Positions 10,261-40,025 of a stretch of DNA of 53,216 nt are shown in pieces (the stretch's first letter is position 1; each line of letters starts with the position of its first letter). This stretch comes from Candidatus Woesearchaeota archaeon (GTDB taxonomy: Archaea; Nanobdellota; Nanobdellia; Woesearchaeales; WJIZ01). The position numbers were made by a program, and so were the translations under genes. The stretch is taken from NCBI GenBank assembly GCA_018221205.1, contig JAAOYF010000028.1, positions 1-53,216 of the forward strand, in the 5' to 3' direction. The notes beneath the pieces are model-generated. The model made no database searches and was not told the origin of the DNA. It worked only from the letters and a program-made list of their open reading frames with translations.

Positions 10261-10370
10261 AAAAAGGCCTTCAGCGAAAGATAGAGAATGATCATGAAAC
10301 CGATGAAGACCGTTATTTCTGAGGAAAGCCTTGCGAAATGAAGCAGCCTGACGTAGGATTCATTCTTCAA
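10257..10370 (-). CDS. 37-aa single-TM microprotein after atpD of operon B: (M)[36 protein letters not shown]
   Basis: TTG start with SD AAGGTGAT, overlaps the atpD end; hydrophobic C-terminal half. Confidence 0.6.
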   Translation of the reverse strand: MKNESYVRLLHFARLSSEITVFIGFMIILYLSLKAFF

Positions 10371-10962
10371 CCTTGATCACCTTCAATCTTGAGAACTCTT
10401 CTCTGGCGCGCTCTTCTAATCTGAAAGATATCCTTTTTGCTGTTTTCTTCAATCTGGGTAGGGTATGAAATTCTAAAGAGTTCACTCTTCTCTTTGTCTT
10501 CTGGATATGGTCTGCAAGCTTCTTCAGTTTGAGCTGCTTCTCGGCGAGAGTCATGATACTGGGGAATAACGCACGGTATTTGACCAATGCATTATCTAAT
10601 TCTACACTTTGGTCGAAATAACCAGGCCATTGATATTTCACCTCTAATTTGTCTATCTTCGGCACGGTGACACCCATGATCTTCTCCTGGGAGATATGAA
10701 AGGTAGAGTCTTCAGCCAACCCTAAAGAAAGGCGGTCGATATCGACCCTTCCTTCAATCGCGATGGCGTTGTATAAAGAAGCACGGGCTTTTCCCAGCTC
10801 TCCTGCGATCTTTCCCCTGGCCTCTTTGATCTCTTTCAGGACTTTGAAGAATTCCATGATCAATGCATCTCTTTTCTGCTTGAGGAGCTTATGGCCGCGG
10901 TCTGCCATATCGATCCTTTTCCTTGTCTTCAGCAATTCCATCCGGGTCGGTTTAGTTTGCAT
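10360..10962 (-). CDS. atpD: A/V-type ATPase subunit D (operon B)
   Basis: [29 protein letters not shown]. Confidence 0.95.
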
Positions 10963-12322
10963 AGTACTTCTCGATGAATTCTTTGGAGATCCTCTTCAAT
11001 TCTTCTTTGGGCAAGGTAGAAAGAAGCTGCCAGGCTTTTTTCAACGACTCCTCTATAGGGCGATCCTCATCATAGCTCTGATTGATGAATTCATGCTCGA
11101 ATGTATCGGCGAAATCAAGATACTTCAAGTCGAGCTCTGTCAAGGATTCTTTTCCTATGACAGCAACCAAATCTCTTAGCGAGCGGCCGCGGGCATAGCC
11201 AGCATATAGTTGATTGGACACATCTGCATGGTCCTCTCTTGTATGGCCTTTGCCTATTCCATGGGCCATCAATCTTGATAATGAAGGAAGTACATCATTC
11301 GGCGGATAGATCCCTTTATGCTGCATATCCCTGGAAAGGACAAACTGGCCCTCTGTGATATAGCCTGTCAGATCCGGAATGGGGTGGGTTATGTCATCAT
11401 CAGGCATGGATATGATGGGCACCTGGGTGAGAGAGCCTTTTCTTCCTTTAATGCGGCCGGCCCTTTCGTATAATGACGCAAGATCAGTGTACATGTATCC
11501 TGGATAGCCCCTTCTTCCTGGAATCTCATTCCTTGCTGCAGAGACCTCTCTCAGCGCTTCACAATAATTTGTCATATCAGTCAGGATAGCGAGAACATGC
11601 ATGTCTTTCTCGAACGCGAGATATTCGGCAGCACTCAACGCAATCCTCGGAGTGATTATCCTCTCGATAGCAGGATGATTTGCGAGATTGAGGAACAAGA
11701 TAGTATTCTGCAACGCGCCAGATTCCCTGAACTCATTCCTGAAGAACTGGGCCTCTTCGTGCGTTATGCCCATGGCCACAAACACCACAGCGAAATTCTC
11801 CTCTTTCGCAAGGACTTTTGCCTGTTTGACTATCTGAGCAGCAATCTTATTATGAGGAAGGCCTGCGCCTGAGAAAATGGGCAATTTCTGACCTCTTACG
11901 AGTGTGTTCATCAGATCTAAAGCAGATATTCCTGTCTGGATGAATTCTTTTGGATATTCTCTCCTGAACGGATTGATCGCAAGACCGTTGACATCGATAC
12001 GTTTCTCCGGGATGATATCTGGCTGGCCGTCAATCGGCTCGCCAAGACCATTGAACATCCTTCCTAACATCTCAGGACTGACATTCAGCTTCATCGTATC
12101 TGCGGTGAAGCGTACCCTGGTCTTGAGGGTGTCAATTCCAGAGGTGCCCTGAAAGATCTGCACCACAGCTTTTCCTTTCTCTACTTGCAAGACCTGGCCG
12201 AGCCGTCTTTGATCATCGGCAGTGATGATCTCAACAATCTCGCCGAATGCAACATCCTCTATGCCTTCGACTACGATGAGCGGGCCTTTCACATCGGTAA
12301 CAGAGCTATATTCCTTTATCAT
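10952..12322 (-). CDS. atpB: A/V-type ATPase subunit B (operon B)
   Basis: [38 protein letters not shown]. Confidence 0.97.
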
Positions 12323-13979
12323 ATTTCATCCTAGCTAATTTTTCATCCATCTTCGGATCCTTCAATTCTGACAGTTTCTTTCCTTGCTTGATATCTTTCA
12401 TCAGCTTTTCATGATATTCTAAGATCTCTTTCAGCATAAAGAACTGCTTTTTCGGAGCGCAATAGGAGTCTACTTTATCATAGGCATTCTGCTGCAGGAA
12501 ATCCTCTCTCAGTCTTTTTGTTGTGTCTAAGACGAGCTTGTCCTCTTCTGGAAGAGCATCTGGGCCGACCAATTGCACAATCTCCTGCAATTCTTCTTCT
12601 TTCTGAAGAAGGGCAAAGGCTTTCTCCCGTAGCTCTGGGAATTGCGGATCCACCTTAAGATAGAACTCTTTTACATCGTCGGCATATAGTGAATACGAGG
12701 TGAGCCAGTTGACAGCTGGAAAATGCCTTTGATATGCGAGAGGTGCGTCCAGTCCCCAGAAGACTTTTGTTATTCTCAGCGTATTTTGGGTAACGGGCTC
12801 TGAGAAGTCGCCTCCAGGGGGAGAGACAGCACCAATAACAGAGATAGAGCTTTCAGCATCATTAAGGGTGAGCACATTTCCTGCACGTTCATAGAACTCA
12901 GCAAGTTTCGAAGACAGGTAGGCAGGATAGCCTTCCTCTCCTGGCATCTCCTCCAATCGTGAAGAGATCTCTCTCAATGCTTCAGCCCATCTTGAGGTTG
13001 AATCTGCCATCAACGCCACATTGAAACCTTGGTCGCGAAAATACTCTGCAATCGTTATTCCAGTATAGATAGAGGCTTCTCTTGCTGCTACAGGCATATT
13101 TGAGGTGTTGGCGATCAAAACTGTTCTTTCCATCAATGGCTTATTGGTGCGGGGATCCATCAATCTTGGAAAATCATTCAGCACTTCTGTCATCTCATTT
13201 CCTCGTTCGCCGCAGCCGATATAGACGACAATATCTGCATCAACCCATTTTGCCAGCTGATGCTGGGATATGGTCTTTCCTGCTCCAAAAGGACCGGGAA
13301 TACAGGCTGTTCCGCCTTTTGCCAATGGGAAGAACGTATCAAATACCCTTTGTCCTGAAATCAATGGCTGTGAAGGGGTGAGCTTCTTCTTGATCGGTCT
13401 TGGTACTCGGACAGGCCAGCTCTGGCTCAAGGTTATCTCCTCTATACCCTTCTTTGTCTCTATTTTCGCAACAACACTCTCTGCCCTATGCACACCTTCA
13501 TAGATCTCTATCAATCTGCCTTCTTTGTCCGGAGGCACCATTATCTTATGCTGGATCAGCTCGGTTTCAGGAACGTGACCAATGACCTGACCAGGTAAAA
13601 GTGGGGTGCCCGGATGGACATTGGCCTTAAATTCAAATTCCTGTTCCTTGCTTAAGGAAGATGCTTCTATACCACGCTCAATAAAATCTCCAGACTGCGT
13701 AGCGAGATAGGGCAGAGGTCTGCCAATACCGTCGAGAATGCTGCCTAATAAGCCTGGGCCAAGATCGATGCTCAAGGGCAACCCTGTTGTCTCGATCTTC
13801 TCATCCGGTTTCAAACCTGTTGTATCTTCATAGACCTGTATAACCGCTAAGTCTCCTTTCAATTGGATGATCTCTCCAATCAGACCTTCTTCTCCTACTT
13901 TGACTACATCAAACATCCTAGAACCTTTCATGCCTTCCCCTATCACAACAGGTCCGGAAATCTTGTTGATGAATCCCAT
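12306..13979 (-). CDS. atpA: A/V-type ATPase catalytic subunit A (operon B)
   Basis: [36 protein letters not shown]. Confidence 0.97.
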
Positions 13980-14257
13980 CAGAGCTGCACTTCTCCGCCG
14001 ATGGCTTTCCTTGTTATCTCCTGCAGGTCATCTATCTTTGAAAAATCCTTCAATGTATCTGGAAATACAATGACATTCTCGTACTCTTTCAATTCAGGAA
14101 CAAGATCCATGATATCTACAGTGGCTATGATAAAGGCATCTTTGTCCATCTTCTTGAGCAATGAGATCGCCTGCACTCTTGAGGAGACGGCATGGCTGTT
14201 CTTTATGCCTGCCAGTCTCAATCCGAGGGCGAACTCCTCATTCGCCAAGACGATCAT
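13979..14257 (-). CDS. atpF: A/V-type ATPase subunit F (operon B)
   Basis: GLRLAGI, ITRKAIG; operon position. Confidence 0.9.
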
Positions 14258-15318
14258 ATGACCATCTCCTTCAGTTCTTTCTTATCGAGCTGTGCTGTAA
14301 TGCCTTTTGCGATGATGAGCAGATTGCGGAATTCCATCCTTTTCTTTGTGAGATAGGAGACCAACGGATAGGGGCCGATAGGATGTGAGAGATCTTCCTT
14401 CGAGACACTCGTTAAAAACCACCTATGCAGTTCCTGTTCGAAGCTGTAGAAATTGTCTGTCTTGTTGTATTTGGCCAAGGCGTTCTGCAGCGGCTGTTCT
14501 AATTCAGTAGACTCGAACGCATTGACGAATTCTTCCATGGTCTTCGCGTTGATCGCTTTTTCCTTCAGGGGAGAGTCAAGCTGCACTTTTTTCTGGATCT
14601 CTTTTTGTTTTCGTATCTTGCATTTCAAGAGCATGAGGATATTCTTGATGAGTTTTCTTTTTGCGAATATTCCTGCGATATGGTCCCTATCAGCGACCCT
14701 TAGTCCAGAGAGCGACTCATCAATGCCCTTCATCACTGTCTCTTCTAATGCAAGATCAAATTCCTCTATTGAGCTGATCTTCTGGTCGAAGATCTTTTCA
14801 TATTCGGTATTGTGCAAGACCAGCTGCACATCTGCAAGAGTCTTTGTCTGATGAAGCCTTGTCAGCAGCACTGGATTGATCGATCCTATGGGCTCGACTA
14901 AACTCTTGTCTAGGTGGGTATTGGAGAATCGGGATCGGAAGAATGTCTTTAAGATGCGGCCTTCATAGATCTTGTCATAAGCATCAAATACGGGCTGGAA
15001 CTTTTTCGGAGAAAGATTTTTTGTGTTCTGGATGGATTGGATGAATCCCTGCTCTACAGCCATAGAGAATTCCAGCAGGCTTTTCTTGTTGATTGTCCTG
15101 AGGAACTCCTGGGAATCAGTATTGTTCAGCTTAGCGACCAATTCAGGCAAGGAATCGCACTCTGCAAGTTTAAGGCATGCGTCATGATCCAGAACAGCAC
15201 GTGATATGATCCTTGCGTTGGCATAGAGGAAAGAGCTCTGGCTGGCATTCTTATACAGGACAATACCTAGCGCAGCACCGGTAACTGCTGTTATGCCTAA
15301 TGCGAGCTCAGCTACCAT
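14254..15318 (-). CDS. atpC: A/V-type ATPase subunit C (operon B), N-terminal hydrophobic helix
   Basis: YANARI, YLTKKRMEFRNLLIIAKG; operon position. Confidence 0.9.
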   Translation of the reverse strand: MVAELALGITAVTGAALGIVLYKNASQSSFLYANARIISRAVLDHDACLKLAECDSLPELVAKLNNTDSQEFLRTINKKSLLEFSMAVEQGFIQSIQNTKNLSPKKFQPVFDAYDKIYEGRILKTFFRSRFSNTHLDKSLVEPIGSINPVLLTRLHQTKTLADVQLVLHNTEYEKIFDQKISSIEEFDLALEETVMKGIDESLSGLRVADRDHIAGIFAKRKLIKNILMLLKCKIRKQKEIQKKVQLDSPLKEKAINAKTMEEFVNAFESTELEQPLQNALAKYNKTDNFYSFEQELHRWFLTSVSKEDLSHPIGPYPLVSYLTKKRMEFRNLLIIAKGITAQLDKKELKEMVI

Positions 15319-15844
15319 AGAATAACCTCCTCGCTATCTTATTTCTCAGCTCTTGCTTCTGTGCTTCAAGGAATCTCGTAAAGGTGAAATCCAATGTCAA
15401 TGTATCTTTCTCAATGGTGATCCCGTTTATGCTGGTGTCAATCTGTATATCTGGAAATAAACCCCTATATTCTTCGAACGTCCCCCTCACCTTGCCTTCT
15501 CCAGATGATCTCTTGACCCGTTCAATATATTCTGGATTCTTCAGCACTTGTCCGGATCGTTCTTCGGCCTGTTTGAAGGCTTCAATGAGCAGATCTTCCC
15601 TTTTCTGCTCATATTCCTTTTTCGCATGCAGCACCTCGTCAGCCATAGTAGAGGTATAGACTTTCTTCTCTTCATTGATCATCTCAGATTCTTTCTTTCT
15701 TAACGCGATGTCGTGGTCTGAGTCGATAGACAAGCGGTCTTTGGTGAAAAGCTCAAGCTGCTCTTTCTCGAAATCATCAAGAAGCTTCTGATAGTGCTTC
15801 TTGAGCTCCTCTCTGAGCAGTTCAAGATTTCCAGCAGTGTTCAT
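15308..15844 (-). CDS. atpE: A/V-type ATPase subunit E (operon B), divergent
   Basis: Helical N-terminus, GITI..LDFTF..L C-terminus; position between K and C. Confidence 0.85.
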   Translation of the reverse strand: MNTAGNLELLREELKKHYQKLLDDFEKEQLELFTKDRLSIDSDHDIALRKKESEMINEEKKVYTSTMADEVLHAKKEYEQKREDLLIEAFKQAEERSGQVLKNPEYIERVKRSSGEGKVRGTFEEYRGLFPDIQIDTSINGITIEKDTLTLDFTFTRFLEAQKQELRNKIARRLFYGS

Positions 15845-16323
15845 CCCAACACTCCAAGACCTACGACAAGCAAGATCAATGAGACGATAAAGCCGAAGAT
15901 AGCTGGCGTTTCACACTGGCCGCCAAAGATCAAGCTTGGCGCAAAGGCATCTGGATTCTTTGCGGAGCTCACTATCCCTGATGCAGCCACTGTTCCCTGG
16001 AAGATGGCAGAGATGCCTGTTATGGCGACTATGGCTCCTGCGCCGAACATCGCCAATCCTTGAAGGGTGGTGAGACTCTTGACACTGCCGCCGAGCAGAC
16101 CCGCACCCATGAGGATCAAGAGTGCGGTGATGAACGCATACACCGTCTGTGTCTGCGGCAGGGCCTGTAGGATCAAAGCTGAACGGAAGTTCTCTTTTTT
16201 TTCTGCGACCGCGCCGGTTCCTGCCAAGCCTGCAGTCTTCAATCCGAAGACTGTACTCAGACCTGCCACTCCCATTGCTAAAGCTGCTCCTGAAATTGCC
16301 CAAATTGTACCTTCAGTTACCAT
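15841..16323 (-). CDS. atpK: A/V-type ATPase proteolipid K, 4-TM duplicated form with Na+-binding motif
   Basis: LPQTQTVY, IFQG and CET; one carboxylate per 4 TM, as in E. hirae NtpK. Confidence 0.95.
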   Translation of the reverse strand: MVTEGTIWAISGAALAMGVAGLSTVFGLKTAGLAGTGAVAEKKENFRSALILQALPQTQTVYAFITALLILMGAGLLGGSVKSLTTLQGLAMFGAGAIVAITGISAIFQGTVAASGIVSSAKNPDAFAPSLIFGGQCETPAIFGFIVSLILLVVGLGVLG

Positions 16324-18202
16324 TTTCTATACCTCCGAATGGAACATATTTTTTTCCTTGTCCTTCATAGAATTTTGAGAAAAACTCAAGAAAGTGAAGC
16401 CTGATGGAGTGAACAAATGCACCTAAGCCATTCATCGCCAGATTGAAGAGATGGCCTATGATGAACACCATAGGGGCAGCTATCTTCCCTACAAAAGGAA
16501 TGCCCCATACCATCAGCGTCATGAAATTTACCGCTAATGCGATGCCTGCAGTCCCTACAGCAAGTGCCATCAATCTGCCATAGGAGAATAAATCTCCTAT
16601 GAAGCCAGTGAAATTGAACACTGATAAGAGAGAGGGAACAACTCCTGCTTCGTCATAGGTGAGACCTACCTGGAATACGAGCGAGAGCAAGAGCAAGCTG
16701 TAGCCGAATACAGGAATCTGCAGCACAAACATGATCAAAGAGAAGAGGAATAGAATCCACACCCCCTGCTTATGCAATGCGTCTTTGACTTTCTTCTTCT
16801 TCATATTTTCAAAAAAACCTACTGCCAATCCGGTGAAGAGATGGATTGCGCCAAGAGCAATTGCAATAACCAAGATGGTCGTGATGCTTCCCAACGAATC
16901 AAGGAGTTGAGGGACATTAAATCCTACTCGTTGAAAGAAATCTCCGAAATAGGAGCCGAAAAAACTTCCTAAGACAGCAGTAAAGATACCGAATGTTGTC
17001 AGGATGAGGCCGATATCTTTTGTTCTTCTATCATAGCTTCCTTTTCCCCTTATCAGGAGGAGGCCCAAGGCCAATAGGACGAAGCCATAGACGACATCAG
17101 TCAGCATGAAGCCGAAGAAGAATGAAAAGGTGATGGCAAGTATCGGAGTCGGGTCGATGTCCTTATAGCGGGGCAGGGAATAGAGTTCAGTGAACAGCTC
17201 GAACGGCTTGATGATCCTTGGATTTTTCAGCAGCGTAGGAGCATCTTCTGCTTCTTCATAGCTCAGATGGAACCCTTTGGCCTCTCGTCCGATGACATAT
17301 TCGAATTCATCCTTGTTCTTTTCAGGGAGCCAGCAGTCCAGTACAGAGAAAGATTCGGCTCCTTTGAGCATCTCTAAGGCAGTTATCTTCTCCTTCCAGA
17401 TATTCAACTCTTTCAGGAACGAATCGAGCAGGCGATGATTGGCCACAAAGAGACGGTATTGATCTTTCATTATCCTGTTTTCCTCTTGCAAGAGCTTCAG
17501 ATTCTCATCTTTTAATGTCTTTATTCTCAGATGAGGAAGGATACCTTCTTTCGACAATTGCAAGGCATCAAAACCGACAGTATGCAGGCCTGATTCGATC
17601 TTCTGCGCATCCTCATGCAGGCAGACGACAATAAGCAGGCAGACCTTCTCATCAATGGGTTTGGTGAGTATGATGGCTCTTTCCAATGATAGGCGATGTT
17701 GAGCTGAGTAGGAGATTATTCCGGCGAATTTCCTGAAAAACTGTGAATCTGCCAGCGCATCTAGCTTGATATCAGGCAGATATCTCAGATTCTCTATCTC
17801 ATAATCGTTCTTGTTCCTGTTTTCCTGGATAGCCTTGACCCTCTGTGCATTCTTTTTAACACGGTCTTCCATAGTATCGAGAATATCTGTTATTTCCCCG
17901 AACAATTCCTCTTTTTTCAGCTGGGCGACACTTTTCAGCGTGGTCTTTTTTGAGAAGAGGTCCTTGAAGAAATTCTTGGGGGTCGCTTTGCTATACTGGC
18001 CAAGGGTCTCTTTGAGGAATTTGACGCGGGCATAGAGGTTGATAGTCTGCTGCTCGTCTTCATCAAGGCTCTGCTCATCCAGATTCACTTCTGATTTTGT
18101 TAGTTGGCAGATGCCCTGCTTGTATAATGCAGAGATGACCTCTTGAGCATGGTCTTTAGGCAGAATCACTGAAGTCCTCACTATCTTTTCTGGCTTAAAC
18201 AT
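16313..18202 (-). CDS. atpI: A/V-type ATPase subunit I (operon B)
   Basis: PTLLKNP, IDPT, SYGRLMAL (essential Arg), HSIRLHFLEFFSKFY. Confidence 0.96.
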   Translation of the reverse strand: MFKPEKIVRTSVILPKDHAQEVISALYKQGICQLTKSEVNLDEQSLDEDEQQTINLYARVKFLKETLGQYSKATPKNFFKDLFSKKTTLKSVAQLKKEELFGEITDILDTMEDRVKKNAQRVKAIQENRNKNDYEIENLRYLPDIKLDALADSQFFRKFAGIISYSAQHRLSLERAIILTKPIDEKVCLLIVVCLHEDAQKIESGLHTVGFDALQLSKEGILPHLRIKTLKDENLKLLQEENRIMKDQYRLFVANHRLLDSFLKELNIWKEKITALEMLKGAESFSVLDCWLPEKNKDEFEYVIGREAKGFHLSYEEAEDAPTLLKNPRIIKPFELFTELYSLPRYKDIDPTPILAITFSFFFGFMLTDVVYGFVLLALGLLLIRGKGSYDRRTKDIGLILTTFGIFTAVLGSFFGSYFGDFFQRVGFNVPQLLDSLGSITTILVIAIALGAIHLFTGLAVGFFENMKKKKVKDALHKQGVWILFLFSLIMFVLQIPVFGYSLLLLSLVFQVGLTYDEAGVVPSLLSVFNFTGFIGDLFSYGRLMALAVGTAGIALAVNFMTLMVWGIPFVGKIAAPMVFIIGHLFNLAMNGLGAFVHSIRLHFLEFFSKFYEGQGKKYVPFGGIENGN

Positions 18203-18509
18203 TTTTCAGAAACTCCTCAAAGATGATATTGATGGCATCATTAATCCTGTTTTTGACAGCATCAAGCTGGTGTATCTTCTCGCTATAGGACTGTCTCAAT
18301 GAAGATGCTTCTTTCTTTGCCTCTTCCTGGGCTTTTTTCACCAGATTATGTTTGTAAGAGGATAGTTCAAAGAGCTCCATATGGTTCTTATCAAGAAGCT
18401 CTTTCTTCTGCTGCGAGAGGATATCTAGAAAGACCCTTTTTTTCTGCTCAAACGCTGACTCTTGACTCTTCTCGAAGAGTTGTAGCTCTTCCAGTACTGA
18501 AATGTCCAT
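18195..18509 (-). CDS. atpH: A/V-type ATPase subunit H/G (operon B)
   Basis: 104-aa charged helix preceding atpI; SD GGGGTGA. Confidence 0.75.
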   Translation of the reverse strand: MDISVLEELQLFEKSQESAFEQKKRVFLDILSQQKKELLDKNHMELFELSSYKHNLVKKAQEEAKKEASSLRQSYSEKIHQLDAVKNRINDAINIIFEEFLKNV

Positions 18510-18513
18510 CCGT

Positions 18514-18553: not shown

Positions 18554-18555
18554 AT

Positions 18556-18651: not shown

Positions 18652-18675
18652 ACTCCTACTTAAGTGGACTATTTG

Positions 18676-18813: not shown

Positions 18814-19427
18814 GTTTTTTTCTTTATGCGCTTCATCCTGAAGACATTCTCTCTTTCTGCCTCTTCTAGGCGGAGCTGGATAAAAGAGGAGGTCTTCTCC
18901 ATACGCGGGATGACTTCAAACTCGAGTGCATTCACCCTTCTTTTTGTCTTTTCGATCTCTCTCAACAGCTTTCTCATACCAGTCTCGACTTCTGCAGCCT
19001 TGATGATCTTCTCGACGACCTTCTCATAGCCGGATGCTGCCTCATCCACTGCAGCTGAGCTGTATAGGCCATATCCCCTTTTCAGGGTTGATTTCTGCAC
19101 TTCAATCTCACCGATATTCGGCACTAAAACTCCCATGATGTTCTTTGTGCCTATCTCGACTTCAGGAGATTTGGAAACAGCCAAGGCAATCGACTTTATC
19201 TTGAGATCAGATTCGAGCAGGCGGGCCATATTCATCTTGTCAAGAGCACTTTTGTACTCCTCGACAATCTCCCCTCTCAGATTCTTCACTTCTTTGAGGA
19301 TGTCAAAGAAATCCAAGATGAGGCCGTCACGCTTTTTCTTCAGGAGATTATACCCGGATTTAGCCAGCTTGATCTTCTTCTTCAATTCCATCAATTCCGA
19401 TCTTGTCGGTTTGACGTTCTGGGTCAT
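18810..19427 (-). CDS. atpD: A/V-type ATPase subunit D (operon A)
   Basis: KPTRSEL, GYNLLKKKRDGL, KTKRRVNALE. Confidence 0.96.
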   Translation of the reverse strand: MTQNVKPTRSELMELKKKIKLAKSGYNLLKKKRDGLILDFFDILKEVKNLRGEIVEEYKSALDKMNMARLLESDLKIKSIALAVSKSPEVEIGTKNIMGVLVPNIGEIEVQKSTLKRGYGLYSSAAVDEAASGYEKVVEKIIKAAEVETGMRKLLREIEKTKRRVNALEFEVIPRMEKTSSFIQLRLEEAERENVFRMKRIKKKT

Positions 19428-20890
19428 TACGCTACCTCTTTCTTCAAGTCGTCTTCATCGACGCCGCCTTCAAGGGGTTTTTTGTATTTGGGTGTTGTCT
19501 TTCCTGATCCTGCTATTTTTTCTACATGATCTTTGTAGTACTTCTTCTTCAGGTCTGGGGAGATCCTTGTCAATTCATCCGGTGGAATCATGCCAAAAAG
19601 CTTCCAGCCCATATTCAAGGTTGTGGTTATTGTCCTGTCTTCATCTTTTGACTGGGTCACGAACACTTTCTCGAACTCTTCTGCGAATTTCAAAAGCCGC
19701 TTATCTCTTGCTGACAATGCTTCTTCACCGACGATGGCCACTAGCCCTCTTAAGTCCCGGCCTTCTGCATAACCTGCATAGAGCTGGTCTGAGACTGATT
19801 TATGGTCATCTCTTGTTTTCTTCGGACCTATACCAAGGTTCATCAGCCGTGATAATGACGGCAAGACATCAACCGGAGGATATATCCCTTTTCTGTGCAG
19901 CTCTCGGCTCAGGACAATCTGGCCCTCAGTGATATATCCTGTCAGGTCGGGAATAGGATGTGTAATATCATCTCCGATCATGGTCAAGATAGGGAACTGA
20001 GTGATAGACCCCTTTTTGCCCTTGATGACTCCTGCCCTTTCATAGATAGAAGCCAAGTCAGTATACATGTATCCTGGATAGCCTCTTCGTCCTGGAACTT
20101 CTTCTCGTGCTGCTCCGATCTCTCGCAATGACTCACAATAGTTTGTCATATCGGTCAGGACAACCAAGACGTGATAGCCTTTCTCGAATGCAATGTATTC
20201 TGCAGCAGTCAAGGCCATCTTTGGTGTAACTAGTCTTTCGACAGCAGGATCATCTGCTAAGTTCAAGAAGATGATTGCTTTAGACAATGCACCTGTCCTC
20301 TCGAAATCTGCGATGAAGTATTGAGCTTCTTCATTTGTTATACCCATAGCTGCGAAGACAACGATGAACTTTTCTCCTTCTCCAAGCACCTTGGCCTGTC
20401 GGGCAATCTGCAATGCCATCTCACTATGAGGCAAACCAGAGCCTGAGAAAATAGGCAGTTTCTGCCCTCTTACGAGGGTATTTGTCGCGTCAATTGTTGA
20501 GATGCCTGTCTGGATAAAGTCTGCAGGAGTGTCTCTTGCGTATGGATTGATGGCTGCTCCGATGATATCCATCTTCTGCTCTGGAATTATGGGGGCCTTT
20601 CCATCAATGGGCTTTCCAGCGCCGTTGAAGACTCTTCCTAACATATCTCCAGAAACACCCAATTTAAGGGTCTCGCCAAGGAACTTCACTTTCGCCCCTT
20701 TTCCGATTCCTGATGTGCCCTCGAAGATCTGGACAACGACGAGATCATCAGAGGTATCAAGGACCTGTCCTGTCTTGACCTCTCCTGAATCCAGCTTGAT
20801 GCTGACGATATCAGCATATCCTATGGGCTCTGTCTTCTCTACGAAAATCAGAGGACCGGCGACTTTGGTTATTGTTTTATATTCTTTCAT
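19427..20890 (-). CDS. atpB: A/V-type ATPase subunit B (operon A)
   Basis: [23 protein letters not shown]; SD GGGTGAT before ATG 20890. Confidence 0.97.
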
Positions 20891-20895
20891 TATAA

Positions 20896-22626
20896 TCACC
20901 CTAGTGCTGCGAACTCTTTTGTCATACTTTTTTCAGCGTCCGTCAGGATCTTCTGATAGTCCTTATCGAACTTTGAGTTCACAATCTCGTTCTTTGACTT
21001 CACTTCAAGGATCTTCTGGATTCTCATCCCTTTGCCCAGGGCTTCCTGTCCAAGGTCCCTATATTTGAGAATAGTCTTCATGATCGCTCTTGTTTTCTTC
21101 AGATCGCAGAACGTATCAACTGCGTGGAACGCGTTCTGCTGCAGGAAAAATTCTCTGATCATCCTGGCAACCTCTAAGGTCAGCTGCTCTCTGTCAGGCA
21201 GGGCATCGGATCCTACTAACTGTACGATCTGAAGCAGTTTCTCTTCTTCCTGCAAGATGCTCATGAACTCGGTCTGGAGCTTCTTAAAATCCTTTCCGAC
21301 ATTCTCTGCAAACCAGGGCTCTAGTGCGTCTCGATATAGTGAATACGAGGTGAGCCAATTGATACTGGGGAAATGTCTTCTTTGGGCGAGCTTTGCGTCC
21401 AATGCCCAGAACGCCTTGGTGACCCTTAGGGTATTCTGAGTAACGGGCTCTGAGAAGTCGCCTCCTGGGGGAGAGACAGCTCCGATAAGTGTTACAGATC
21501 CTTCTTTCTTCTTTCCTTTCGGAATGGCCCTTCCTGCCCGTTCGTAGAACTGCGCAAGTCTTGTTGCGAGATATGCAGGGTAGCCTTCTTCACCAGGCAT
21601 CTCTTCCAGCCTTGAGGAGATCTCTCTCATGGCTTCAGCCCATCTTGAGGTTGAATCTGCCATCATAGCAACACTGTAACCCATATCCCTAAAGTATTCT
21701 GCTATCGTTACTCCAGTATAAACAGATGCTTCTCTTGCTGCTACTGGCATATTTGAGGTGTTCGCAATGAGGACTGTCCGATTCATGAGTGCTTTTCCGG
21801 ATTTTGGATCAATAAGTGCTGGGAATTCTTTCAGAACCTCTGTCATCTCATTTCCTCGTTCGCCGCAACCGACATAGACGACGATATCTGCGTCAGCCCA
21901 TTTAGCCAATGTCTGCTGAGCAACGGTTTTTCCTGCTCCGAACGGACCTGGAATGGCTGCTACCCCTCCTTTTGCTAGCGGGAAGAGTGCGTCGAAGATC
22001 CTTTGTCCTGTTATCAATGGAACAGTCGGATTGAGTTTCTTTCCAACAGGCCGCGCTTTTCTGACAGGCCAGAGCTGCTTCATCTTTAAGATAGTGCCGT
22101 CATCCAATTTTCCGACAGGTTCGTCAACAGTATATTTACCTGAGGATATCTCCTTGATCTTTCCTTCCTTGTCAAGAGGGACCATGATGCTGTGCATGAT
22201 TCCAGGTGTCTCTTCGACTTCGCCGATAACTTGGCCAGGCTTTACTGCATCACCTTTCTTCACTTTGGCCTTGAAATCCCACTTTTTCTTTGGGTCCAAG
22301 CCTGGAGCTTCGAGGCCGCGGAAGATATAATCTCCCTGTTCCTGCTGAAGCACAGGCAGCGGTCTCTGGATTCCGTCGTAGATGCTCGTCAATAATCCGG
22401 GACCGAGTTCGATGCTCAGCGGCTTTTTTGTATTAATGACCGGCTCGCCAGGCTGCAGGGCAGAGGTATCTTCATAGACCTGGATGATGATCTTATCCCC
22501 ATCTATCTGGATGACCTCACCCATGAGCTTTTCATTGCCTACTTTCACGAGATCGTACATGTTTGCACTGATTCCTTTTGCGACCACGACTGGGCCAGCA
22601 ATCCTATATAAAACACCTTTTTCCAT
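20896..22626 (-). CDS. atpA: A/V-type ATPase catalytic subunit A (operon A)
   Basis: [27 protein letters not shown]. Confidence 0.97.
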
Positions 22627-22940: not shown

Positions 22941-23965
22941 GCGATCACCAACGGCTCTACTTTTTCCATATCCATGCCGAAATTCTTGGCTTTGACGATG
23001 CTCTTGATATTCCGTATCTCGATCTCTTTTGCGAACAGATAGCTCAAGATGACATTGACTGAGAGAGGATTCTGATGCTGGAAGAGAAGTGTTTTCCTGA
23101 AGAGATACTGGTTCAACGCTATTTCCAAGGGAATCAATGAAGATTCGTCAATCTCTTTTATCGGATAAGGAGATTTTGCGATCAACCTATGGATCTCTTC
23201 TTTTGTTTTTGCTTTGAGCAATGATCTCATAAAGACATTGTCTGATCTGTCGAGAGTGAAGAAAATATGCTTCTTAATCTCATCGCTTGCAAAGTTTTCT
23301 TTCTTCAGTCTGAAAAATGTCAATAAATTCGTTGTCTGGATAATGCTCACTAAGAATTCTCTGAACAATTTTCCCTGCCGGGGAATGTTCTTCGCGAAAT
23401 CGAGGAGAGTTCTGAAATAAAAATGATCCAATGCAGTCTCGACATCTACCAATTGCTTTGAGGGCAGCTCTTTGTATCTAAGATAAAATTCATTCAGAGG
23501 AGGTTTCGCTGATTTGAACATCTCCTCATTCTCTTTTTTTCTCATCAGGTCCAGGTCTTGCTCGGACAGCAATCCTATGGGCAAGAGCAATGCTTTCAGC
23601 TCTTCATCAGGAAGATCAATGGCCTTTGCCCGCAATACCACTTTGATATTGTCGATGTCAAATTTGAGAAGATAGGCATCGATGACATCATTGAAATAAT
23701 CCGGAGAAATCCTCTTTAGCTTGGCAATGGTGTGCTTGAAATTCTTGTTCAGGGCCTGTTCTATGAGCTCAAGGCCAGAATACCTCACGCCAAGTTCATT
23801 CATCTCCTTACTGTACTGCGTCTCTCCAAGATAATTGGAGATCTCTGCAAGAGACATCTTCATGAGTTTCTTATAATCTGCTTTAGGTATGAGTAATGTG
23901 CGCATCACCGCGGTCCTCACATAGGTGTAAGGACTTTCCCATAACCTCATCTTACCTTTTTTCAT
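22937..23965 (-). CDS. atpC: A/V-type ATPase subunit C (operon A)
   Basis: YTYVRTAVM, DIDNIKVVLR, KEIEIRNIK. Confidence 0.93.
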   Translation of the reverse strand: MKKGKMRLWESPYTYVRTAVMRTLLIPKADYKKLMKMSLAEISNYLGETQYSKEMNELGVRYSGLELIEQALNKNFKHTIAKLKRISPDYFNDVIDAYLLKFDIDNIKVVLRAKAIDLPDEELKALLLPIGLLSEQDLDLMRKKENEEMFKSAKPPLNEFYLRYKELPSKQLVDVETALDHFYFRTLLDFAKNIPRQGKLFREFLVSIIQTTNLLTFFRLKKENFASDEIKKHIFFTLDRSDNVFMRSLLKAKTKEEIHRLIAKSPYPIKEIDESSLIPLEIALNQYLFRKTLLFQHQNPLSVNVILSYLFAKEIEIRNIKSIVKAKNFGMDMEKVEPLVIA

Positions 23966-24495
23966 CTGAACAACTCTTGTGCTATCTCCTGCAGATATTT
24001 TTCTTTGATACCTCCAACCACTGTATCAAAAGAATAATTTATGCTGACACTGCCATCACTGTTCTCAGAGATCAATCCACCATCTATATCTCCAACTGTT
24101 GCTTTAACTCCTTTGAGGAATTTCGCGTCCTGCTTGTTGCAGTATACCCGAGCTATCTTCATCTGTCTCTGAGCTTTCTTGAGGATGCTCTTCAGATAGG
24201 ATTCTCTCTTTTTTGAAAGTTCCTTCTTCGCTTCCTGAATGGCTTCTTCAATCAACTCCCGTTTCTTCTCGAGCACAAGATGGGCAGCCTCTCCTTGAGA
24301 CTCCGCCTCCTTGATCTGCATTCTGCGCTCCTTCTCTTCTTCAAGAGAATTCTGCAGATGCTTTTTCTTCTCCTGCACGAAATCCTTGAGTTCCTGCTCC
24401 AGTTGCTGTAGTTTGTTTCTGGTTTCTGTCTCTATCTGAGCGATCTCTCTGTCTCTACTCTGTTCGATATCCTTCTTGATTTCTTCAAGTCCCAT
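23962..24495 (-). CDS. atpE: A/V-type ATPase subunit E (operon A)
   Basis: MGLEEIK, GGLISENSDG..NYSFD. Confidence 0.92.
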   Translation of the reverse strand: MGLEEIKKDIEQSRDREIAQIETETRNKLQQLEQELKDFVQEKKKHLQNSLEEEKERRMQIKEAESQGEAAHLVLEKKRELIEEAIQEAKKELSKKRESYLKSILKKAQRQMKIARVYCNKQDAKFLKGVKATVGDIDGGLISENSDGSVSINYSFDTVVGGIKEKYLQEIAQELFR

Positions 24496-24497
24496 GC

Positions 24498-24743
24498 TTA
24501 TCCAGCCATACCGATGATCAAAATGGCGATAACAAGTCCGAAGATAACGATTGTCTCTGGAATAACGGTCAAGATAAGACCTTTTCCGAACAACTCTTCT
24601 TTCTCTGCCATTGCACCTATAGCTGCGGTACCAATTCCTTTTTCAGCCCATGCTGCTGCAAAAGCTGATGCACTGATAGCGATGCCTGCTGCGAGAGCAA
24701 TCATCCCTGTACTTCCATTTGTTATTGCGGCTCCAACTGCCAT
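24498..24743 (-). CDS. atpK: A/V-type ATPase proteolipid K, 2-TM form
   Basis: AWAEKGIG..AIGAMAE..LFGKGLILTVIPETIVIFGLV, Methanosarcina AhaK-like. Confidence 0.96.
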   Translation of the reverse strand: MAVGAAITNGSTGMIALAAGIAISASAFAAAWAEKGIGTAAIGAMAEKEELFGKGLILTVIPETIVIFGLVIAILIIGMAG

Positions 24744-24746
24744 GTT

Positions 24747-26558
24747 TTATCCCTCCTTATAGCCAAACGGCTTAAATCTTATTCCGCCTCCTTTGTAGAA
24801 CTTACTGAACAGTTCCACATAGTGGAGTCGTAATGAGTGTAAAAAGCTTCCTAACATTCCTATCCCTATGTTGATGATATGGCCGACAATCAATAGGAGT
24901 GCACCCCAGACATAGCCAAGGCCTCCAGCTGCGAACAGCGGCGCGGCCTGGTCGTTGATGACCAATGCTAATCCTACTGAACTTAATCCAATTGCCATTA
25001 ATCTTAGATAACTAAGGATGTTGCCGAAGATGCTCGGAATCTCCACCAATCCTCTCACTCCTTCTCCTTTGTAGAGCATGAAGAGTGATAGTGCAAGGAC
25101 GATCCAGCCCACTATGGGCAAGAGCAGGATGACTTTTGTATAAGATAATGCGAGCAGTGCTACTGAGGCCTGCAGGAATATCCAGCCGAACTTCTCGTAA
25201 AATGCTGTCATGAAACCATGTGCCCTGAATTCATTGATGAAGCCAGCGATCAAACCAGCATTCACATGGATAACGCCTGCAAAAAGTGCAGCGATCATCA
25301 AAGGCTCCAATGCGTGATGAGGATTTCTGCTGATCAAGGGATGCCAAAATTCATAGCCGAAAAATTCTCCAAAGATCAATCCGAAAAATATCGTGCCGAA
25401 TGAGGCAAAGATGAGGATATTGAAAAATCTCTTGAATTGAGGCATGGCTTTCTTCATAAACCAAAATAGTACCAGTGTAGTAAGGCCGTAGCCATAATCT
25501 CCGAGCATGAACCCGAACAATAACGGGAAGGTGATGAACATGAACCACGTAGGATCTATCTCCTTGTACTTCGGCAGGGTATAAAGGTCGAGGAAAAACT
25601 GGAAGCTATTGACGCCCTTCTGATTCTCGAGCTCTATCGGTACTTTGTCTTTCTTGTCTATTGCATGGATCTCGACAACGAGCCTATCATTCGCAGCGTT
25701 TCTCAGTTCTTTTATCGAATGCTCGATATCTTCTTTCGGGACAAAACCCCAGACAACAAATGCTTTGTCTGTCTCCTGGAATCTTAATGGTGCTTCAGCT
25801 TTCTCAAGCTCATTGCTTAGGAGGAACTCATAATCAGGCAGCTTCTTCGCATATTCTTTCTTCAGATTTATGCGTTTTCTTCCGATACCCTTAAGATTGG
25901 ACTGCGCTTTTGCCACTGTCTCTTTTATCCTCTTCTCAGAGCTTTGTTTCATATCTGAGAAATCGATGGAGATGAAATCATGGGCAGTGAGCATGGATTT
26001 TGCAGAATCAAAGAAAGAACTGTCGATGAACAGGGCAATGACAGCTTTCTTTTCAATGATCGCCTTTCTCAATGAATACTTTGTCGTCTTTTCTTTCAGC
26101 TTTGCTTCGAAAGCCTCGATGTTTTTGATGAAGCCGACAGTATAGGAGAGGGTGCTGTATTCCTGAAATGCATCCAGATCAAGCTTCAATGCTTTGAGGA
26201 TCTTTGCCTTTTCGAGATGGTCCTGCTGCTTTCTCAGGATATCGTTGCTTTCTTTCTCCTCATCGGCTATTTTGATGAGCTTTTGAGCGAGAGCTTCGAT
26301 CTCTTTGGCGATCCCCTTCACTGATCCCTTCTGGGCAGCATGCTCTTTTCTGAGCGGGATATTGAATTTTGAGGCAATAGCACGGATCTTTACCAAGGTA
26401 GAAGAAAGAAGCTCTGCATCGGGCAAGGATGAGCCTTTCTCTGCCTCATTCTGGCCTTCTACGATATGGAGGATCTTCAGTTCCTGCAGCCTGGCGATTA
26501 TCTTCGGCATGACAGCCTTCGAGCCTACCAGACGTAATTTAGTCATGTCATTAATCAT
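24747..26558 (-). CDS. atpI: A/V-type ATPase subunit I (operon A)
   Basis: IDPT, GDYGYG, SYLRLMAIG, HSLRLHYVE. Confidence 0.96.
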   Translation of the reverse strand: MINDMTKLRLVGSKAVMPKIIARLQELKILHIVEGQNEAEKGSSLPDAELLSSTLVKIRAIASKFNIPLRKEHAAQKGSVKGIAKEIEALAQKLIKIADEEKESNDILRKQQDHLEKAKILKALKLDLDAFQEYSTLSYTVGFIKNIEAFEAKLKEKTTKYSLRKAIIEKKAVIALFIDSSFFDSAKSMLTAHDFISIDFSDMKQSSEKRIKETVAKAQSNLKGIGRKRINLKKEYAKKLPDYEFLLSNELEKAEAPLRFQETDKAFVVWGFVPKEDIEHSIKELRNAANDRLVVEIHAIDKKDKVPIELENQKGVNSFQFFLDLYTLPKYKEIDPTWFMFITFPLLFGFMLGDYGYGLTTLVLFWFMKKAMPQFKRFFNILIFASFGTIFFGLIFGEFFGYEFWHPLISRNPHHALEPLMIAALFAGVIHVNAGLIAGFINEFRAHGFMTAFYEKFGWIFLQASVALLALSYTKVILLLPIVGWIVLALSLFMLYKGEGVRGLVEIPSIFGNILSYLRLMAIGLSSVGLALVINDQAAPLFAAGGLGYVWGALLLIVGHIINIGIGMLGSFLHSLRLHYVELFSKFYKGGGIRFKPFGYKEG

Positions 26559-26872
26559 TTTATCTCTTCTTCAAATTTCTGTACTACAAGAGAAACCGCT
26601 TTTTGCATGTTCTTCCTGGTATCCCGTTCTAGGGCCTGAGCTTCACTCTTTCCCTTAGCAAGGCTTTTTTCCTTGATCTTTTCCATCTCTTTGTCATACT
26701 GCTCTAATGTCTGAGCATGCTCTTTGTCTAATCTTTCCTCTTCCATCTGTTTCTGTCCTTGGATCTTATCAGAAATCTCTCTCAGTCTCAGCTCTGCTTT
26801 TTTTCTTGCCTGCTCAACCTTTTTCTTGGCATCAGTCTCTGCAAGCTTGATTTTTTTCAGGATTGCATCCAT
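26555..26872 (-). CDS. atpH: A/V-type ATPase subunit H/G (operon A)
   Basis: ILKKIKLAE..A.KKVEQARKKA helix; overlaps the atpI start. Confidence 0.85.
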   Translation of the reverse strand: MDAILKKIKLAETDAKKKVEQARKKAELRLREISDKIQGQKQMEEERLDKEHAQTLEQYDKEMEKIKEKSLAKGKSEAQALERDTRKNMQKAVSLVVQKFEEEIK

Positions 26873-40016: not shown

Positions 40017-40025
40017 TTATTCCTC

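Follow-up and report, generated by a model that had tools for sequence, protein, structure and literature searches.

Two intact A/V-type ATPase operons of different evolutionary lineages lie in tandem in a Woesearchaeota-like archaeon

Why would a DPANN archaeon carry two complete rotary ATPase operons side by side? ATP synthase is believed to be missing from many DPANN archaea, and how these cells balance their energy is a standing question. We analyzed a contig of 53,216 nucleotides (the window) from a 74-contig metagenome assembly estimated to be 94.8% complete. The host, a sediment archaeon with a small genome, falls in the Woesearchaeota group. Its nearest named relatives are Candidatus Woesearchaeota, and an A subunit of any kind was found in just 17 of 41 close relatives, which agrees with the DPANN context invoked in the initial annotation of this DNA. 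The window contains two intact rotary A/V-type ATPase operons that belong to different evolutionary lineages. Both lie on the minus strand, operon 1 at 10360-18509 and operon 2 at 18810-26872, and the ORF listing gives each the full gene order H-I-K-E-C-F-A-B-D. We call operons resembling them type 1 and type 2, and we number subunits by operon (A1, A2). The features and the evidence for each are as follows.

26941..27816, minus strand: o291 (291 aa); weak PhoU match (E 9.7e-5, 23.1 bits against a cut-off of 23.5); conserved, directly upstream of the ATPase operon
26873..26940, minus strand: putative promoter region of operon 2; TATA-like TTATATAA followed by a GGGTGG ribosome site ahead of the H2 start (sequence read)
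26555..26872, minus strand: operon 2 subunit H, peripheral stalk, G/H-like; V-ATPase_G_2 below cut-off (21.7 bits against 28, E 3e-4) and operon position
24747..26558, minus strand: operon 2 subunit I, stator a subunit; PF01496, equivalents of R573/R629
24498..24743, minus strand: operon 2 subunit K, 81 aa, one hairpin; PF00137, best solved match T. thermophilus subunit K
23962..24495, minus strand: operon 2 subunit E; PF01991
22937..23965, minus strand: operon 2 subunit C (d/AC39); PF01992
22626..22940, minus strand: operon 2 subunit F; PF01990
20896..22626, minus strand: operon 2 catalytic subunit A; PF00006, PF16886, PF22919, PF02874; GPFGAGKT
19427..20899, minus strand: operon 2 subunit B; PF00006, PF22919, PF02874
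18810..19427, minus strand: operon 2 subunit D, central stalk; PF01813
18676..18813, minus strand: 45-aa single-helix membrane ORF; ATG overlaps the D2 stop (ATGA) (sequence read)
18510..18675, minus strand: inter-operon spacer; two hairpins, near-palindrome GAGATTTTCGAAAAATCTC, BRE/TATA-like GCAAAAGATTTAAAAA, GGGGTGA ribosome site
18195..18509, minus strand: operon 1 subunit H; hhalign 88% to the type-2 H family, conserved in sister genomes G003 and G004
16313..18202, minus strand: operon 1 subunit I, both arginines kept; PF01496
15841..16323, minus strand: operon 1 subunit K, 160 aa, two hairpins, four helices, one Glu; full-length alignment to 2bl2
15308..15844, minus strand: operon 1 subunit E; hhalign profile-profile match to the type-2 E family, 98% probability, full length
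14254..15318, minus strand: operon 1 subunit C; PF01992
13979..14257, minus strand: operon 1 subunit F; weak PF01990 (E 0.004, below cut-off), BLASTP E 9e-4 to F2
12306..13979, minus strand: operon 1 catalytic subunit A; four Pfam domains, best solved match P. horikoshii A (794 bits)
10952..12322, minus strand: operon 1 subunit B; Pfam above cut-off
10360..10962, minus strand: operon 1 subunit D; PF01813

We defined an A1AO enzyme by a catalytic A subunit with a Walker A motif and the A-specific insert, a non-catalytic B, D, C(d), E, F, H/G, a stator I with its arginine, and a proteolipid K with a carboxylate. Operon 2 encodes all nine, including the K glutamate and the stator arginines, with H as its one assignment below the Pfam cut-off. 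Operon 1 also encodes all nine; H (without a match in the Pfam profile search) and F are its weak assignments, and a gene of 92-95 aa is conserved at the F position across type-1 operons. Pfam matches above cut-off were obtained for I, K, C, A, B and D in both operons and for E and F in operon 2 alone. The initial annotation had described two complete tandem operons with preserved P-loops, subunit I arginine and K glutamate. The co-directional gene runs and their exact coordinates bear out the first of these claims, and no reading frame is broken. The GPFGAGKT P-loop is present in the translations of both A subunits, and the equivalents of E. hirae R573 and R629 are kept in both I subunits. 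The glutamate claim needs amending: it stands for K2, which has one Glu in its single hairpin, but K1 has one Glu for two hairpins because its first hairpin reads PQTQ. A PF00006 search of the whole genome returned four matches, all on this contig and all from the four A and B genes, and no further PF00006 gene.

The two operons are strongly diverged. Pairwise BLASTP gave identities of 57% for A, 61% for B and 40% for D, 32% for I over the C-terminal half, and 42% for K over 43 residues. The peripheral subunits are barely alignable, with E values of 9e-4 for F, 0.003 for C, 0.047 for E and 0.77 for H. These values uphold the earlier view that the pair did not arise by recent duplication. In a quick LG+G4 tree of concatenated A and B subunits (75 rows, after 16 near-duplicate rows had been dropped), operon 2 fell in a starred Woesearchaeal clade and operon 1 in a different starred clade. 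In a quick PMSF C20 tree of 60 rows, the type-1 clade comprised 14 rows and the type-2 clade 15, with SH-aLRT values of 99 each; operon 2, with o291 upstream, lies within the latter (99*), the resident Woesearchaeal A-ATPase clade. Forcing both types into one clade cost 174.5 log-likelihood units (p-AU 2.5e-5), in a test whose group was chosen after the tree was seen and whose trees came from quick searches. Together with the occurrence of each type alone in sister genomes, the separate clades and the rejected joint clade support the different origins proposed earlier. By these placements, operon 2 belongs to the common Woesearchaeal lineage and operon 1 to a rarer one.

We surveyed both types across 401 genomes of the order. 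Type 1, scored by C1-like genes (E<=1e-25), occurs in 22 genomes, and type 2, scored by C2-like genes (E<=1e-20), in 103. Only four genomes (G000, G043, G046 and G281) carry both. These four represent four families (f1, f38, f41 and f30), and the operons stand in tandem in two of them, G000 and G046; the latter has the full tandem with the operon order reversed relative to this window. Sister genomes G003 and G004 contain a type-1 operon as their sole rotary ATPase. The G004 locus reads Elp3-RsmB-o157-Trx-GAPDH-o291-[operon 1]...PGK-o413, which equals the flanks of the window without operon 2, and G003 has GAPDH-[operon 1]. The arrangement o291-[operon 2] was found in five of nine type-2 loci examined (G001, G013, G021, G031 and G040).

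The intergenic regions link these loci. The first ~40 bases past the o291 stop are conserved in this window (before H2), in G004 (before H1) and in G001. Judged by the archaeal promoter consensus, 26873..26940 is the likely promoter of operon 2. In the spacer, GCAAAAGATTTAAAAA lies ~46 nt before the H1 ATG, and the near-palindrome GAGATTTTCGAAAAATCTC occurs once in the window; we read the spacer elements as a candidate operon 1 promoter and a putative terminator. Each operon thus probably has its own promoter. Small one-helix ORFs comparable to the 45-aa ORF lie 3' of D in 10 of 21 D genes examined in relatives. At the same locus, sister genomes hold either operon 2 alone or operon 1 alone, the latter apparently driven by the promoter that serves operon 2 here. 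This gives the window the look of an intermediate stage in the displacement of one operon by the other.

The c subunits suggest how the two enzymes may differ. K1 aligns over its full length to E. hirae NtpK (2bl2) and keeps L61, T64, Q65, Y68, Q110 and E139, and these residues are conserved across the type-1 clade. K2 reads AWAEKGIG in helix 1 and IPETIVIFG in helix 2, a motif conserved in the type-2 clade. Its pattern, (E)...ET-I-V-I-F, is nearly the same as that of the T. thermophilus c subunit and, as in that protein, has Ile and Phe at the positions of E. hirae Gln65 and Tyr68. The T. thermophilus enzyme is reportedly H+-coupled. The Na+-site residues of NtpK are listed as L61, T64, Q65, (Y68), Q110 and E139 (PMC10382590). 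A minimal Na+ motif pairs a Gln/Glu of helix 1 with a Glu-Ser/Thr of helix 2 (Mulkidjanian 2008, PMC2359735), beyond which further polar residues are seen in I. tartaricus and E. hirae. K2 has Glu...Glu-Thr and so contains this minimal motif; therefore, both enzymes could use Na+. On the strength of the K1 site we infer that operon 1 is Na+-coupled, and operon 2 is probably H+-coupled. A difference in coupling ion between them is plausible.

Gene content across the order bears on the direction in which each enzyme runs. PF02508, an Rnf marker, is present in 17 of 22 type-1 genomes (14 of 19 without the unpublished G137, G212 and G214), in 5 of 99 type-2-only genomes and in 18 of 280 genomes with neither type; these raw counts overstate the association because related genomes are not independent. 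PF02508 was not found in the remaining five type-1 genomes, and one genome (G006) has Rnf and yielded no ATPase in our search. A complete RnfCDGEAB set lies ~5 kb from the type-1 operon, a candidate Na+ ATP synthase, in the relative G029, and no such set was found in the present genome. Here we detected an RnfD-like gene and two low-scoring Rnf-Nqr genes, together with two Na+/H+ exchangers; Complex1_51K (RnfC, PF01512) and FMN_bind (RnfG, PF04205) were not found in this 94.8% complete genome. No canonical Rnf was found, so no primary Na+ pump feeding operon 1 was identified in this genome.

We propose a scenario that joins these observations. Operon 2 would be the resident enzyme of the order, sitting behind o291 and its promoter as in other families. 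The operon 1 lineage would move among genomes as a whole operon and would have landed beside operon 2; later, in sister genomes, deletion of operon 2 would have placed operon 1 under the old operon 2 promoter. Insertion followed by deletion is the simplest reading of the synteny, and the order of events is undated. Most likely, the tandem is an intermediate that was retained from this in-place displacement. Operon 1 would be Na+-coupled, from a lineage normally paired with an Rnf Na+ pump, and could make ATP as the V-type-c A1AO synthase of Eubacterium callanderi does. E. callanderi has Rnf. Operon 2 would be the ordinary enzyme, probably coupled to H+, and its main role in these fermenters would be to energize the membrane at the cost of ATP. 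These running directions are suggested by gene content and motifs. Taken as a whole, the reading of a resident pump-like operon 2 and an incoming Na+-type operon 1 able to make ATP, caught in displacement, has our moderate confidence.

The initial annotation offered, as examples, one synthase and one ion pump, or switching with salinity or pH. Read in the way opposite to ours, operon 1 would serve solely to extrude Na+ at the expense of ATP when cells meet salt or alkaline stress, and operon 2 would be the ATP synthase. K1 matches the proteolipid of the Na+-pumping E. hirae V-ATPase with all site residues kept, V-type c subunits do occur in dedicated pumps such as that enzyme, the genome has two Na+/H+ exchangers without a canonical Rnf, and the separate promoter-like region of operon 1 contains a palindrome that could be an operator. 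We nevertheless consider this assignment unlikely. Operon 1 lies outside the Enterococcus/Clostridia V-type clade, and as the sole rotary ATPase of two sister genomes it can cover whatever the cell needs. The tie between the V-type-c operon and Rnf, itself a Na+ exporter, fits a consumer of the Na+ gradient better than a second exporter and, if anything, argues against the intuitive role of operon 1 as a pump. A primary ion pump able to feed a synthase is nearly always missing from type-2 genomes (Rnf in 5 of 99). Less probable still is redundancy in transit, with displacement under way, one operon unexpressed and due to be lost, and no division of labor. The rarity of co-residence and the sufficiency of either type alone in sister genomes would suit it, but all 18 genes are open with catalytic and ion-path residues kept, each operon shows just one departure at 293 near-invariant A+B columns of the 60-row alignment, and the terminal branches of operon 1 (0.34 in the 60-row tree) and of its sister G003 (0.24) are similar in magnitude. 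Recurrence in four families, twice in tandem, also speaks against it.

Two further explanations concern how the tandem itself arose. A metagenome assembly in 74 contigs could have joined two strains with different operons at the same locus, and a 34-base stretch identical in A1 and A2 could confuse a de Bruijn graph. The join, however, falls in a non-homologous spacer outside that stretch. Contigs of run X1, which may be the source sample of this assembly, cover 9500-28000 in all 30 bins, evenly and to a depth of 1.7-6.5, and show no joint or loose end at 18500-18810, with no single bridging contig among those listed. The tetranucleotide make-up of the operons correlates at r 0.97 (0.91-0.94 against the rest of the contig), and the independent genome G046 carries the same two types in tandem. 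An artifact is thus very improbable. Least credible is an old duplication inside the Woesearchaeal lineage followed by divergence: shared gene order and adjacency are what it would predict, but the AU test rejects the joint clade, and in the trees the two types are separated by sequences from methanogens, Thermoplasmatota and Micrarchaeota and by bacterial V-type sequences.

With displacement as the preferred reading, the locus offers a natural series at one promoter (operon 2 only, both, operon 1 only) in which the role of each type and the cause of replacement can be asked. If type 1 truly goes together with Rnf, some Woesearchaeales conserve energy by a sodium cycle, which would bear on their host dependence. 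A broader and quite tentative proposal, possible in our view, is that type 1 is a mobile Na+ ATP synthase operon spreading in DPANN archaea with Rnf and making some Woesearchaeales chemiosmotic ATP producers instead of substrate-level fermenters or energy parasites. The window would then capture this module displacing an ATP-consuming pump at the same promoter, in an order home to four or more rotary ATPase lineages, among them one whose rotor is a single polypeptide of 13 hairpins. Having both operons in one genome is also convenient for comparing the expression and biochemistry of V-type and single-hairpin c rings against the same cellular background.

We compared the locus to known systems. 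In the parts of the ProAD account considered here (PMC11738941), more than one complete A-ATPase is reported for 3% of archaeal genera. Two enzymes that differ in predicted ion specificity are found in seven genera, and enzymes that share a genome are noted as typically using different ions. Archaea with several A-ATPases are already catalogued, and the present locus therefore serves as a clear example, not as a new type of system. The multi-ATPase cases named in those parts are Methanomicrobiales, Methanosarcina and Methanothrix_A, whereas ours is in Woesearchaeales, and they describe neither tandem placement nor a displacement series. Hadal Nitrosopumilus carries A-type and V-type-like operons, and horizontal transfer of operons has been described for Thaumarchaeota (Wang et al. 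2019, PMC6863869). According to the sections of that paper used here, some thaumarchaeal genomes, like ours, hold both a resident operon (theirs congruent with the species tree) and a second nine-gene operon gained by whole-operon transfer. Proton selectivity was predicted for the thaumarchaeal c rings; K1, in contrast, carries a complete Na+ site. We recovered the acidophile/piezophile V-type-like clade of that study (99*) without either of our operons in it, and Nitrosotalea grouped with Micrarchaeota and Cuniculiplasma, away from operon 1.

The E. hirae V-type Na+-ATPase (NtpFIKECGABD; PDB 2bl2; PMC10382590) shares with operon 1 the four-helix, one-site c subunit, both stator arginines and the gene order. 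In E. hirae this enzyme works as a pump, and the bacterium has an F-ATPase as well. Operon 1 lies in a starred clade of its own type, apart from Enterococcus, Finegoldia, Oscillospiraceae and Clostridia, and so did not group with bacterial V-types. Among solved structures, A1 matches Pyrococcus horikoshii A at 794 bits and Thermus A at 693 bits; our trees are without Thermococcales sequences. The A1AO synthases of Pyrococcus furiosus and E. callanderi have a V-type c subunit, as operon 1 does; the portion of the work drawn on here describes Na+ dependence and ATP synthesis for those enzymes, including synthesis by the Na+-dependent E. callanderi enzyme (Litty and Muller 2022, PMC9171764). For operon 2, A2 scores 754 bits against Thermus A and 759 bits against Pyrococcus A. 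K2 most resembles the single-hairpin c subunit of the Thermus thermophilus V/A-ATPase (PETIVIFG in K2 and PETLVIFG in Thermus), but its helix 1 has Glu where Thermus has Gln. This gives K2 a two-carboxylate site, of the kind discussed for F. nucleatum and M. acetivorans (PMC3692424).

The initial annotation placed two ATPase operons in tandem at 10360-26872, and an ORF listing put two co-directional gene runs there on the minus strand, at 10360-18509 (operon 1) and 18810-26872 (operon 2), each in the order H-I-K-E-C-F-A-B-D. We mark subunits of the two operons with the suffixes 1 and 2, and call the corresponding lineages type 1 and type 2. The genome comprises 1.28 Mb in 74 contigs with an estimated completeness of 94.8%, and the window is one entire contig of 53,216 bases. 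Apart from the operons, it carries archaeal housekeeping genes (Elp3, Spt5-NGN, L11, FtsZ, archaeal D-aminoacyl-tRNA deacylase, GAPDH and PGK). Pfam identified I, K, C, A, B and D in both operons, and E and F only in operon 2, the upstream run. E, H and F of operon 1 had no Pfam match above the cut-off and are correctly positioned. Profile comparison matched E1 and H1 to their type-2 counterparts (98% and 88%, respectively), and the homology of F1 to type-2 F was seen in weak matches (Pfam E 0.004; BLASTP 9e-4). All four PF00006 matches in this genome fall within the window, with none elsewhere. Separately, we observed a low-GC island at 39500-43000 (GC 0.30-0.33 against about 0.42) with a Fic-domain gene and a DDE (IS240-type) transposase. 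Its tetranucleotide make-up departs from that of the remaining contig (r 0.66), and it is probably a recent mobile insertion.

The catalytic features that had been read from the sequence were largely borne out. The P-loop GPFGAGKT is present in A1 and A2, and equivalents of E. hirae R573 and R629 are kept in both I subunits. The preserved Glu of subunit K was found in both copies, with an amendment for K1: this protein (160 aa, four helices) is a duplicated c subunit with a single Glu, because its first hairpin reads PQTQ. K2 is a single hairpin of 81 aa.

We found that the two operons belong to separate lineages. Identity between them is 57% for A, 61% for B, 40% for D and 32% for I over half its length, and essentially absent for H, E, C and F, which agrees with the earlier view that the peripheral subunits are barely alignable and the pair is not a recent duplication. 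For phylogeny, we collected 80 named loci of public genomes through the A1/A2 alignment, together with operon regions from 16 genomes of the same order. With 16 near-duplicate Nitrosotalea, Methanoregula and Intestinimonas rows dropped, the first A+B tree had 75 rows. Operon 2 fell in a starred clade with three genomes of the same family (G001, G002 and G005), followed by records titled Candidatus Woesearchaeota and then by Aenigmatarchaeota, Nanobdellati and Mnemosynella. Operon 1 paired with G003 in a different starred clade that includes G029 and records titled Iainarchaeum and Altiarchaeota. After twelve regions were added, we ran a quick search under a site-heterogeneous model (PMSF C20) on 60 chosen rows, omitting the long-branched L036, L055 and L081 among others. 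The type-1 clade (14 rows) and the type-2 clade (15 rows) each received 99; supports quoted are SH-aLRT values from quick searches. Between them lie methanogens, Thermoplasmatota, Micrarchaeota with Nitrosotalea, and an Enterococcus/Clostridia V-type clade. Forcing both types into one clade, a group chosen after the tree was seen, cost 174.5 log-likelihood units (p-AU 2.5e-5). These results uphold the proposal of two enzymes of different origin, and we regard an in-lineage duplication that gave rise to both operons as extremely improbable. Searching with C1 returned only 14 close relatives, which did not reveal where the type-1 lineage came from. Two of these 14 closest homologues (P0004 and P0008; identity 47-49%) are from MAGs labelled Candidatus Kariarchaeaceae, a family that NCBI taxonomy places under Promethearchaeati, Asgard archaea. 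Their contigs span 8.8 and 12 kb; either binning went wrong or the type-1 operon was transferred beyond DPANN.

We then weighed artefact and decay. The operons meet in a unique 300-base stretch (18510-18809, between D2 and H1), at the start of which lies a small ORF:

18676-18813, minus strand: ORF of 45 aa, N-terminus basic, a single membrane helix; start codon and D2 stop overlap in ATGA

Among the 21 D genes inspected in relatives, 10 (of both operon types) have a comparable small one-helix ORF that overlaps their stop or comes immediately after it; the ORF in the window may be an unannotated tenth subunit or an assembly factor. Beyond it, the spacer contains two hairpins followed by a near-palindrome; a BRE/TATA-like GCAAAAGATTTAAAAA comes next, some 46 nt ahead of the H1 start. 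By the archaeal consensus, GCAAAAGATTTAAAAA is a putative H1 promoter. Scans for sigma-70 sites (19 against 25.3 in shuffles) and terminators (19 against 15.5) gave no excess and are unsuited to archaea. The operons have a single identical stretch in common, 34 bases long and located within the A genes (21632-21665 in A2, with its counterpart in A1), remote from the join; strong constraint on a motif or a small patch of gene conversion may explain it. Short contigs from a sediment metagenome (run X1), which may be the source sample of the genome, covered all 30 bins of 9500-28000 at a depth of 1.7-6.5, and neither a joint nor a loose end fell near the spacer. None of the 8 contig pieces listed, out of 41, bridged 18510-18809, and this coverage lends the join weak support. 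A single X1 loose end at 21617 had no match within the window and probably comes from another organism's A gene. Run X2 contained next to no matching sequence. Both operons are alike in composition and near the remaining contig. A chimeric join is unlikely because it would sit in a unique stretch with even X1 coverage and like composition on both sides, and because another genome (G046) carries a tandem too; we judge an assembly artefact very unlikely. The initial annotation had also raised decay of one operon, which we did not find: all 18 genes are open, and at 293 near-invariant A+B columns each operon shows one departure, as few as any departing row. That one copy is silent seems improbable.

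The flanks of the operons suggested how the tandem arose. Directly upstream of the putative operon 2 promoter region (26873-26940) is the gene we call o291:

26941-27816, minus strand: o291, 291 aa, with a sub-threshold PhoU-domain match

In 5 of the 9 type-2 loci examined (G001, G013, G021, G031 and G040), this gene immediately precedes the operon. Its position upstream of an ATPase operon is conserved across several families of the order, whichever type comes next, and it may encode an ATPase regulator or accessory protein. G004 belongs to the same family as the window and has only type 1. Its upstream flank (Elp3, RsmB, o157, Trx, GAPDH, o291) and downstream flank (PGK, o413) are as in the window, and H1 comes straight after o291. 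In G003, H1 comes after GAPDH. The window and G001, where H2 follows, and G004, where H1 follows, have in common about 40 bases past the o291 stop, including a TTATA(A/T)AA box. We propose that the old state of the order was o291-promoter-operon 2 and that operon 1 arrived beside it. Deletion of operon 2 in G004 and G003 would then have brought operon 1 under the old operon 2 promoter, and the window would be a retained intermediate of this displacement. Arrival followed by deletion is the simplest reading, drawn from synteny. When MetRS was tried as a rapid marker for species relationships, identities were uneven (46-72%) and two matches were partial, and it was not used for a family tree.

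We examined how often the two types occur together. An A subunit is present in 17 of 41 close genomes, which split by identity into A1-like and A2-like sets. Across the order, we probed an evenly drawn sample of 401 genomes with type-specific C subunits. C1-like proteins (E<=1e-25) occurred in 22 genomes; a search at E<=1e-5 gave 46, from which 24 with E of 2e-10 or weaker were removed as cross-matches to other types. C2-like proteins (E<=1e-20) occurred in 103. Unpublished genomes account for three of the 22 (G137, G212 and G214) and one of the 103 (G318). Both types reside together in four (the window's own genome G000, G043, G046 and G281). G046 has a complete tandem in reverse order, type 1 and then type 2, and in G035 type 2 adjoins a fourth, long-branched operon. 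Two-operon genomes are therefore rare, but recurrent and real.

L098:9000-16900 (G035:C12): fourth-lineage operon adjoining the type-2 operon, from protein searches

Those searches detected just I, A, B, D and a K of 73 aa in the fourth operon, and did not find C, E, F or H; either strong divergence or reduction would account for this. The order also contains a third ATPase lineage, placed near Thermoplasmatota in the tree, with K genes of 1100-1123 aa:

L093:2198-5569: giant K gene, G015
L095:6669-9971: giant K gene, G025
L099:2158-5463: giant K gene, G037
L091:6845-8101: giant K gene, G009, cut by the contig end

The G015 protein has 13 hairpin repeats at 81-residue spacing, one with PQTQ and twelve with PET, and would be an entire rotor in one polypeptide. 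To our knowledge, Methanopyrus kandleri is the sole precedent for such a rotor. Its c subunit has 13 hairpins (PMC2359735).

The c subunits bear on the coupling ions. K1 aligned with E. hirae NtpK over its full length and keeps L61, T64, Q65, Y68, Q110 and E139, which form the Na+ pocket of NtpK (PMC10382590). All six residues are kept throughout the type-1 clade, and by this criterion operon 1 very probably binds Na+. K2 is closest to the T. thermophilus c subunit, and both are hydrophobic where E. hirae has Gln65 and Tyr68. The K2 motif, Glu...Pro-Glu-Thr-Ile-Val-Ile-Phe, satisfies the minimal Na+ motif Gln/Glu...Glu-Ser/Thr (Mulkidjanian 2008, PMC2359735), and the second carboxylate is expected to act like Gln (Schulz 2013, PMC3692424). 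We lean slightly towards operon 2 being H+-coupled, or mixed H+/Na+, the sequence alone being indecisive.

We searched the window's own genome for sources of an ion gradient. It encodes a membrane pyrophosphatase, split over two contig ends, and two Na+/H+ exchangers; no Proton_antipo_M or NADHdh proteins were found in it. In 4 of 16 ATPase-bearing relatives, no more than a few kb separate a membrane pyrophosphatase gene from the ATPase operon, and all three operon types are represented:

G004:C29:21927-23873: membrane pyrophosphatase
G009:C112:659-2578: membrane pyrophosphatase
G021:C8:42440-44359: membrane pyrophosphatase
G007:C16:10970-12691: membrane pyrophosphatase

The genome's only Rnf-like genes form a trio that adjoins a DUF7121 gene and ribosomal L10/L1 genes:

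L118:7331-9382 (G000:C26:57330-59381): RnfD-like gene and two divergent, low-scoring Rnf-Nqr membrane subunits

No RnfC, RnfG or RnfB lies beside the trio, and a search of the remaining genome gave no RnfC- or RnfG-type domain. The genome is thus without a canonical Rnf. An RnfC_N match of 26.5 bits was rejected, as it contains a stop. The Rnf-like copies in G004 are similarly low-scoring.

In the order sample, the Rnf-Nqr family PF02508 occurs in 40 of 401 genomes. Of the 22 type-1 genomes, 17 have it, or 14 of 19 once unpublished genomes are set aside; 15 of the 22 have canonical-Rnf-like scores, and G000 and G004 score low. Among type-2-only genomes the count is 5 of 99, three of them in the genus of G035, and among genomes with neither type it is 18 of 280, two of which have the third operon type. 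In G029, a complete RnfCDGEAB set lies roughly 5 kb away from the type-1 operon. These are counts over related genomes, which are not independent, so we treat the association as a pattern, with no statistical test.

We suggest that operon 1 encodes a Na+-coupled A1AO enzyme of a lineage that would normally consume the Na+ gradient made by Rnf, and that it could therefore synthesise ATP. In this respect we liken operon 1 to the E. callanderi enzyme with a V-type c subunit, for which ATP synthesis is reported (PMC9171764). In the window's own genome, the pyrophosphatase and the reduced trio of Rnf-like genes are candidate sources of a Na+ gradient. Operon 2 would be the order's ordinary enzyme, probably H+-coupled, and mainly an ATP-driven pump in fermenters without a primary ion pump. 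The directions, synthesis by operon 1 and pumping by operon 2, are assigned tentatively; the reverse assignment, with operon 1 as the pump and operon 2 as the synthase, is a less likely but live alternative.

We compared the locus to known systems. In the ProAD report, two or more A-ATPases occur in 3% of archaeal genera, and seven genera have two enzymes of different predicted ions (PMC11738941). Wang 2019 (PMC6863869) reports the transfer of whole operons, hadal Nitrosopumilus genomes in which an A-type operon coexists with a V-type-like one, and expression of a thaumarchaeal V-ATPase in E. coli. According to Huang 2021, a V-type ATPase is encoded by some Woesearchaeota, with coupling of Rnf and ATP synthase proposed for subgroup J. 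A 2026 preprint treats V/A-ATPase as a single category, present in about 40% of complete Woesearchaeales genomes, and nowhere uses the word Rnf. In the parts of the open-access literature available to us, we found no description of distinct ATPase lineages, tandem operons or a displacement series in Woesearchaeales or Woesearchaeota. Archaea with multiple ATPases are already known, so the locus is not a new kind of system; its use lies in the evolutionary series that comes with it.
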